From IMG/VR virus record IMGVR_UViG_3300032332_002377: DNA of 64,000 nt; one strand, 5' to 3'. Made by a program: the position numbers and the translations under genes. How positions within the stretch are numbered: position 1 is the first letter of the stretch; the number at the start of each line of letters is the position of its first letter. Origin of the DNA: a virus (Duplodnaviria; Caudoviricetes). The notes under the pieces were generated by a model. The model did no database searches. It had not been told where the DNA came from and saw only the letters and a list, made by a program, of their open reading frames with translations. Positions 18,556 to 19,436 of the stretch are shown one piece after another.

Positions 18556-19233
18556 CTATGATATATGAGATTTAGAGATGTTCAACTCTTTTTTTAAATT
18601 ATTTTTAAGTTTATCTAAACCATTAATAACAAGATGCTTACATTTAGAAGAATTTAGAAATTTTATTTTTTTAAGATTTAATTTTTCTAAAAAATCAGAT
18701 TCAAACATAAAGCGCAAAACTTCTGTATCAGATTTTGATAAAACATTATTTAAATTGTCAAAACTTAAGATTGAGTATAGGTTAATGTCTCTATTTTTTA
18801 AGTGTAAAAGGAAGGAAAACATATTGTTTGTCTTGTGTGACAAATATTCTGTTAAATGTAAGTTGTTGTCTTTGCAAAAGTTGTAAATATATATGAGTGA
18901 TTTTTTAGTAAAAGCTAATTGTTCTTCAGAATCGGGATCTAGATTACTTAAATTTTTGCAATGTATGGTATATGCTTTTACTGCTTTGAGTGAATTAAAA
19001 TAGCATAGATCAAAAAATTGCTCATCATTATATAGTTTATAGGAAGCAGTAAAAAACGCTAGCGGGTCAATATCCTTATGCTTGTTAAAAAAGAAGCTTA
19101 ATTTCTTGAGACAAGCACCTGCCTTTTCATCCAAGTCATTAAAGTTTTTTCTTACTGTATATGGCTTGTTTTGCGTTGTTCTTGAGGCTTTGAGATGTAG
19201 GTTGTAAAGGTATTTTTCGTAATCAGAAATCAT
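18556..19233 (-). CDS. Helicase loader (gp59-like)
   Basis: 225 aa, basic; YLYNLHL N-terminus; directly upstream of gp32 as in T4. Confidence 0.55.
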   Translation of the reverse strand: MISDYEKYLYNLHLKASRTTQNKPYTVRKNFNDLDEKAGACLKKLSFFFNKHKDIDPLAFFTASYKLYNDEQFFDLCYFNSLKAVKAYTIHCKNLSNLDPDSEEQLAFTKKSLIYIYNFCKDNNLHLTEYLSHKTNNMFSFLLHLKNRDINLYSILSFDNLNNVLSKSDTEVLRFMFESDFLEKLNLKKIKFLNSSKCKHLVINGLDKLKNNLKKELNISKSHIS

Positions 19234-19436
19234 TTATAATTACGCCATTTTAATCTAGCAAACTCTTTTTTCAACTTTTTACGTTTGCTTGGCTTATTAA
19301 AATATCTTCTGTATCTAAGCTCTTCTATAATTAAAGATTTTTGTACTTCTCTGCTAAATTTATTATACATCTTGTCGAAATACGGCTTTTCAACACTCTT
19401 GCTTTTGTTTAATATTACTTCAGATTTAATAATCAT
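19230..19436 (-). CDS. rpsU: Ribosomal protein bS21
   Basis: 68 aa; FDKMYNKFSREVQKSLIIEELRYRRYFNKPSKRKK matches the bS21 pattern (..F.R...K.GI..E.R.R..Y.KPS.RR). Confidence 0.85.
   Translation of the reverse strand: MIIKSEVILNKSKSVEKPYFDKMYNKFSREVQKSLIIEELRYRRYFNKPSKRKKLKKEFARLKWRNYK

Follow-up and report, generated by a model that had tools for sequence, protein, structure and literature searches.

Known systems and position of the locus

Phage-encoded bS21 is well known (PMC6375957). In the freshwater Bacteroidetes myoviruses of Chen et al. 2022 (PMC9723584), which are large T4-like phages of SD-scarce hosts, a conserved bS21 with an aromatic residue near its C-terminus is expressed late and encoded beside structural genes; in their clades a-e, the gene lies antisense among TerL, portal, protease and MCP genes, and the aromatic occupies the position of Tyr54 of Flavobacterium johnsoniae bS21. 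In the same study, 30 of the 900 phages encoding bS21 had a helicase gene no more than ten genes away, and hosts outside the Bacteroidetes were listed as well. In Pelagibacter phage HTVC008M and pelagimyophages, bS21 is under purifying selection (PMC6375957, PMC7029224), and the HTVC008M protein, which is 54% identical to that of its host, incorporates into ribosomes (PMC6375957). The model for the C-terminal aromatic is F. johnsoniae with its anti-SD sequestration and rpsU autoregulation (PMC7797042, PMC9976891), where loss of bS21 or of its C-terminus from ribosomes slows initiation on SD-less mRNA and speeds it up on rpsU (PMC9976891). In anti-SD occlusion of the Bacteroidota type, a pocket formed by bS21, bS18 and bS6 holds the 16S 3' tail.

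The DNA analysed here is a stretch of 64,000 nucleotides (the window; IMG/VR record IMGVR_UViG_3300032332_002377), and the source of its bS21 operon is an uncultured T4-like lake phage. With the phages of Chen et al. it shares the large freshwater T4-like type, a conserved bS21 with an aromatic residue near the C-terminus, an SD-scarce host (here a probable one) and orthologues beside structural genes. It differs in that bS21 stands on the same strand as its neighbours in the order gp41-DHH-hypothetical-bS21-gp59-gp32, in having Leu62 at the Tyr54 position and a Trp two residues on, and in its sigma70-type promoters and probable Verrucomicrobiota host. Judged by context and the Tyr54 position, this is a phage-encoded bS21 outside clades a-e. 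The earlier note had described phage bS21 genes as belonging mainly to Bacteroidota phages and lying near structural genes; the latter agrees with orthologues beside the tail gene gp15, whereas both a DNA-processing context and non-Bacteroidota phages had already been reported (PMC9723584).

Like the pelagiphage proteins, the window bS21 comes from an aquatic T4-like phage and is under purifying selection, but a search for a close cellular or cultured relative gave no real match. The putative host belongs to another phylum than F. johnsoniae but likewise combines an SD-scarce genome with an SD-led rpsU, while the phage bS21 has neither Tyr54 nor an SD. Three points appear to be new: the 'KW-tail' clade and its occurrence in two settings, a host that is probably a member of the Verrucomicrobiota, and synonymous sites that conceal a candidate promoter. 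In a literature search of incomplete coverage, neither a connection between phage bS21 and leaderless phage messages nor a description of this phage family came up.

The bS21 gene and its replication operon

The features of the locus, in the order of transcription, are as follows.

20631..21971, minus strand: gp41-type DnaB-like replicative helicase (PF03796, E 4e-30; phrog_19)
20607..20634, minus strand: early-type promoter TTGATT-16-TAAAAT in leaderless geometry, 5 nt ahead of the GTG of DHH
19711..20601, minus strand: DHH phosphoesterase (phrog_4771, E 8e-11; synteny)
19433..19714, minus strand: conserved 93-aa hypothetical protein, a family marker always immediately before bS21 or gp59
19476..19481, minus strand: internal TAAATA in the Ser-Lys-Tyr codons AGT AAA TAT, candidate late promoter
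19433..19471, minus strand: candidate leaderless mini-ORF of 12 codons (C-terminus of the 93-aa gene), its stop overlapping the bS21 ATG
19230..19436, minus strand: divergent bS21 of 68 aa, 'KW-tail' phage clade (Pfam, TIGR and phrog matches, predicted fold; no SD)
18556..19233, minus strand: gp59-like helicase loader (AF2 pLDDT 92; T4 gp59 1c1k; BFVD)
18558..18585, minus strand: early-type gp32 promoter TTGAAC-16-TATCAT
17704..18549, minus strand: gp32 ssDNA-binding protein (PF08804, E 5e-17)

The 68-aa ORF at 19230-19436 matched PF01165 with 34.6 bits (cut-off 27), TIGR00030 with 33.6 bits (cut-off 28.95) and also phrog_21469. An AlphaFold (AF2) model built from 67 homologues (pLDDT 91) consisted of two helical arms, residues 17-44 and 49-65, linked by a coil that contains the KP(S/T) motif; in fold searches with this model, bS21 chains ranked first (Z 5.8, 63 aligned, rmsd 3.0). 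Profile and fold searches thus agree with the divergent bS21 that the earlier note had read from the letters. The protein is small and basic, with a net charge of about +13. Against close relatives, dN was 0.07-0.21 and dS at least 1.8 or saturated (dN/dS of about 0.06-0.1). We conclude from the sequence comparisons that the phage bS21 is a genuine, divergent and probably functional family member under purifying selection; purifying selection and surrounding T4-like core genes are the features expected of a phage-encoded bS21 (Mizuno 2019 type AMG). Upstream of its start, the pairing energy was -1.3 kcal/mol, revealing no SD, and phage bS21 leaders in general had a median pairing of -2.4 kcal/mol, which equals background. 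A sigma70-like site, TTGAAA-16-TAAAAT (10/12), lies within bS21 at 19274-19247 (minus strand) and ends 14 nt before the gp59-like start; it may be due to chance.

The surroundings of bS21 form a T4-like replication module (gp41, gp32, polymerase, RecA-like), whose gp32 is at best 28-32% identical to cultured relatives, indicating that no close one is in culture. Overlaps of 4 nt (ATGA) at 19714/19711, 19436/19433 and 19233/19230 join DHH, hypothetical, bS21 and gp59-like genes, as had been proposed. The gp59-like protein gave no sequence-family match; the top structural match of its model was T4 gp59 1c1k (Z 7.2, 174 aligned, with an rmsd of 13.8 that reflects a domain hinge), helicase loaders led the BFVD list, and Foldseek against the PDB alone did not recover gp59. 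By predicted fold and its position near gp32, the gene downstream of bS21 is gp59-like. The 93-aa hypothetical has 284 relatives in IMG/VR and no match in Pfam, NCBIfam or the ESM Atlas, nor was this family marker found in GTDB genomes.

The early-type promoter of the unit, also predicted previously, was recovered at 20634-20607, and most relatives have an orthologous TTGA..TAAnnn site at the head of the unit. Early read-through from the DHH promoter into bS21 is supported. In relatives, the -10 box of this promoter reads TAnnnT, TAAATA or TAATTA with TTGAT constant, and the promoter is kept where DHH is full-length (~296 aa) and where, as in many relatives, it is cut to ~105-120 aa or absent. 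An early-type site precedes gp32 in 39 of 43 bS21-positive loci. Within gp32, the TAT codon of Tyr118 (window ~18198, minus strand) is found in 42/42 relatives and is the most conserved of 275 two-fold sites.

Distribution of bS21 in the phage family

The clade that includes the window bS21 consists of phage proteins only (at least 108 intact clusters); it is set apart by a 5-residue loop insertion, a remodelled N-terminus and an invariant PS, and retains the ribosome-binding core and the KPS motif. Trp64 is invariant (105/106) and lies two residues beyond the position equivalent to F. johnsoniae Tyr54 (offset from 7jil), which is occupied by N, L, Q or K across the family; a Tyr is common at +3, giving an aromatic C-terminal tail.

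Of the distinct bS21 loci, 26 follow the 93-aa gene in the replication slot; 21 lie at other sites, most of them immediately ahead of the tail gene gp15. TAAATA stands 4-9 nt before the bS21 start in 15 of these 21, so that by its upstream sequence bS21 outside the replication slot is of the late leaderless type, with structural genes as neighbours as in Chen et al. (PMC9723584). The bS21 of G007, a third member of the family that has 52 of 88 window proteins in common (median 52% identity), is of another, host-like kind, and TAAGTA precedes its ATG by 3 nt. With this gene (L185:1495-1677), the phage family includes a further bS21 lineage that is Verrucomicrobiota-like and comprises 44 clusters (P0136-P0179); it is found near Hsp20/Thy1 in relatives and has a C-terminus that ends before the FRF tail of the host protein. 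An unrelated bS21 of 55 aa (P0017) was seen at L035:10001-10168, in the tail-gene region of another phage with a tape-measure gene.

In this T4-like family of freshwater and marine phages, all three genomes of at least 90% completeness carry one bS21, at three different places. Five incomplete relatives (39-70% complete) span both known sites without bS21 at either; one of these, G010 (61% complete), is as leaderless in design as the window phage. Because of these two observations, bS21 is judged to be favoured in this phage family but probably not required, and the view that a leaderless phage needs it is not supported, given G010, as far as the known sites of this 61% complete genome show.

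Leaderless gene design

The T4 late promoter is TATAAATA at -13 to -6, associated with gp55. In the window, the shared TAAATA core lies 4-7 nt before the start of 18 out of 84 genes, other 4-nt bins holding at most 4 each. The modal TAAATA-to-start gap is 5 nt; with the T4 geometry, +1 would then coincide with the start codon. Early-type TTGA..TAnnnT sites are most frequent at a distance of 6 nt from starts. Unlike T4 late genes, those of the window would have no leader and lack an SD, and their TAAATA core has TAAGTA as a minor variant; phage transcript starts are derived here from promoter-start geometry. SD-like pairing at phage starts was no higher than at internal ATGs. The leaderless design of the phage genes, as read from their upstream sequences, is thus above chance, in agreement with the earlier note. 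The late-type leaderless fraction was 20% in relative G006 and 21% in G010, as against 1% in a stretch of cyanophage S-B05 and 4% in a 50-kb stretch of pelagiphage Mosig, which is SD-rich (58%) where the window phage is SD-free.

TAAATA-to-start spacing is lineage-specific: a gap of 4 nt is common in G001 (L173-L184; 21/63) and nearly absent in G006, G007, G009 and G010. Many leaderless-geometry starts were also seen at window 49206-63851, a long run of ORFs of 210-316 aa that includes glycosyltransferase and NDP-sugar epimerase matches.

A candidate late promoter inside the 93-aa gene

The earlier note had reported no TAAATA at the bS21 start. None lies directly at the start, but one is present 40 nt upstream (19481-19476), where the codons AGT AAA TAT ATA ATG of the 93-aa gene read as TAAATA-4nt-ATG (19481-19469) with the ATG in frame. 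The resulting mini-ORF is 8-17 codons long in 47 of 48 relatives and has the ATGA overlap with bS21 in 36 of the 48.

TAA(A/G)TA plus ATG is intact in 46/50 distinct loci with bS21 in the slot, compared with 20/98 without. The Ser codon is AGT in 46/49 loci with bS21, against a background AGT share of 59%; in loci without bS21 that keep the Met, AGC outnumbers AGT by 58:19, against a background AGT share of 0.65. Every Met-keeping clade without bS21 is AGC-majority, the motif is broken in both nested bS21 losses, and this codon (Ser78) ranks ninth in conservation among 275 two-fold sites. As there are only 4-5 independent contrasts (2.9 in the same direction, 0.1 opposite; sign test p 0.25), the association of motif and bS21 is suggestive. 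Two features weigh against the site: a gap of 4 nt is seldom used in this lineage, where the mode is 5, and the score of its flanks, compared with genuine late sites, is at the 10th percentile. A reading as a bipartite TTGA-18-TAAATA promoter was rejected, since TTGA is kept (42/48) just as often as the codon background would predict (86% TTT), which makes the -35 of this site uninformative. On balance, the internal TAAATA is somewhat more likely than not to work as a late promoter. If it is real, bS21 would be made early by read-through and late from its own promoter. The proposal that bS21 is early rather than late is weakened by this probable promoter and by the orthologues next to gp15, which are mostly late-type and leaderless.

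Host assignment and SD use

The window bS21, compared across phyla, was no closer to Verrucomicrobiota than to others, and bS21 relationships, which had been suggested as a host indicator, do not reveal its donor. The bS21 of G007 does, and the host is therefore assigned through this relative. In a GTDB search with patterns drawn from the G007 query itself, the best 80 of 444 matches were all Verrucomicrobiota, mostly Chthoniobacterales, at 55-64% identity; the G007 bS21 profile gave a median of 85.6 bits on Chthoniobacterales and no more than 41 with solved bS21 structures from other phyla. We infer that the host is probably a member of the Verrucomicrobiota, in line with the non-Bacteroidota host for which the note had argued. 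tRNA matches to Verrucomicrobiota were 85-90%, a figure that stands without a comparator. A CRISPR spacer search of 20 kb against 401 Verrucomicrobiota genomes yielded only short AT-rich matches outside arrays. Two other potential host markers were discarded: the PATR repeat, found in only 1/5 relatives, was not diagnostic, and the MAG labels on cluster members (Proteobacteria, Micrococcales, 'bacterium') were inconsistent and treated as mis-binning.

SD is reported in ~10% of Spartobacteria genes (PMC10783764), and Verrucomicrobiales are described as globally without SD (PMC10798248). A crude count in one Chthoniobacteraceae genome gave SD use of 6% versus 4% in the control, and leaderless heads were few. 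In a set of Verrucomicrobiota rpsU leaders (L226-L305 and L579-L608), the gene had a strong, often extended SD: it was SD-led in Chthoniobacterales (84% of 70 leaders below -5 kcal/mol, median -7.6), and phylum-wide its leaders had a median of -17.1 kcal/mol (n=23; the sample may include SD-using classes). An SD-scarce host with a strongly SD-led rpsU, the trait of an anti-SD-occluding bS21 and, in Bacteroidota, a mark of bS21 autoregulation (PMC9976891), is thus present at the level of the inferred host phylum. It predicts Bacteroidota-like anti-SD occlusion and bS21 autoregulation in Verrucomicrobiota, a question raised in PMC10798248.

Possible roles of the phage bS21

Starting from the identity of bS21, its purifying selection, its operon position, the absence of SD and the leaderless design, we tentatively favour, at a little less than even confidence, an accessory supply or tuning factor that keeps SD-less-initiating ribosomes loaded with bS21, rather than a switch from host to phage mRNA. 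The expression and ribosome steps would be as follows. bS21 would be made early from the DHH transcript through translational coupling and again late from the TAAATA promoter hidden in the 93-aa gene; late expression of phage bS21 has been reported before (PMC9723584). Within host 30S subunits, the protein would take the site at which bS21 is held loosely, and would keep the subunits in what may, in SD-scarce bacteria, be the best state for initiating SD-less messages, here leaderless, A/U-rich and ATGA-coupled phage genes. By analogy with Flavobacterium, host rpsU with its strong SD would be translated by ribosomes lacking bS21; the SD-free phage gene would escape this SD-based feedback, and phage bS21 saturating the ribosomes would also damp host bS21 synthesis. 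The supply would serve a heavy, mostly late translation. If the host works like F. johnsoniae, an SD-free phage that shuts down host expression would therefore gain by its own SD-free bS21. A more far-reaching version, in which a phage family of Verrucomicrobiota uses the remodelled bS21 (early coupled, late from the hidden promoter with the mini-ORF) to build specialised leaderless-preferring ribosomes and shut off the SD-autoregulated host bS21, seems rather unlikely.

The earlier note proposed that bS21, made early, may mask the anti-SD and so bias initiation away from SD-led host messages in favour of leaderless phage ones. Its foundations largely hold (identity, operon position with unbroken ATGA coupling behind an early-type promoter, early read-through, a leaderless phage with no SD signal, a non-Bacteroidota host), and the aromatic tail could stack on the 16S 3' end. 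The takeover itself fares less well: the mostly late-type orthologues speak against early-only synthesis, the likely SD-scarce host (PMC10783764; PMC10798248) perhaps offers little SD-led mRNA to disfavour, the phage protein has no Tyr54 equivalent, the leaderless design also occurs without bS21 at the known sites, and E. coli data point the other way, leaderless initiation being better where bS21 is lost (PMC10491246). We regard masking as quite improbable. That same E. coli result, obtained with ribosomes lacking uS2/bS21 on leaderless lambda cI mRNA, together with the ~5% activity of HTVC008M-bS21 ribosomes on a standard reporter (PMC6375957), keeps as a candidate a phage protein that acts as a bS21-null mimic: it would displace host bS21 and leave the anti-SD unsupported or block 30S loading of leadered mRNA, so that 70S-type leaderless initiation is favoured and leadered host translation falls. 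The loop insertion and remodelled N-terminus would fit, as would late-type leaderless heads on ~20% of phage genes and few in the sampled host genome. However, many phage genes are internal and coupled and therefore need re-initiation, G007 has a near-host bS21 instead, G010 is leaderless with neither known site occupied, and Flavobacterium ribosomes deficient in bS21 perform less well with SD-less messages (PMC9976891), so we consider this mimicry unlikely, if worth retaining.

Strong divergence together with strong purifying selection, and a stable place between helicase and loader in many clades, might instead reflect a replacement that resists a bS21-removing or bS21-modifying host defence, as already suggested for phage bS21 (PMC9723584, PMC9976891), or an RNA/DNA-binding protein co-opted for the replication module. 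The same lineage also occurs in the tail region, which argues against a replication-specific role, and the ribosome-binding core and KPS motif are retained; this explanation, too, appears improbable. Repeated loss of bS21 from the replication slot in several lineages would suit a neutral passenger or decaying gene, a reading that dN far below dS largely refutes and that the 108 intact clusters, with residues invariant at 40-50% identity, make very hard to sustain.

Maintenance and selective takeover can be told apart in this phage family, which provides three placements and two lineages of bS21 as well as relatives apparently without it, has a probable host phylum that is culturable and shows a phage-wide leaderless design.

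Other genes of the window

Genes for QueC, FolE, QueD-like and QueE-like proteins, joined in relatives by DUF366 (window 25331-26071, 43118-43819, 45088-45801 and 46775-47512; L030:689-1279), represent a 7-deazaguanine DNA-modification pathway.
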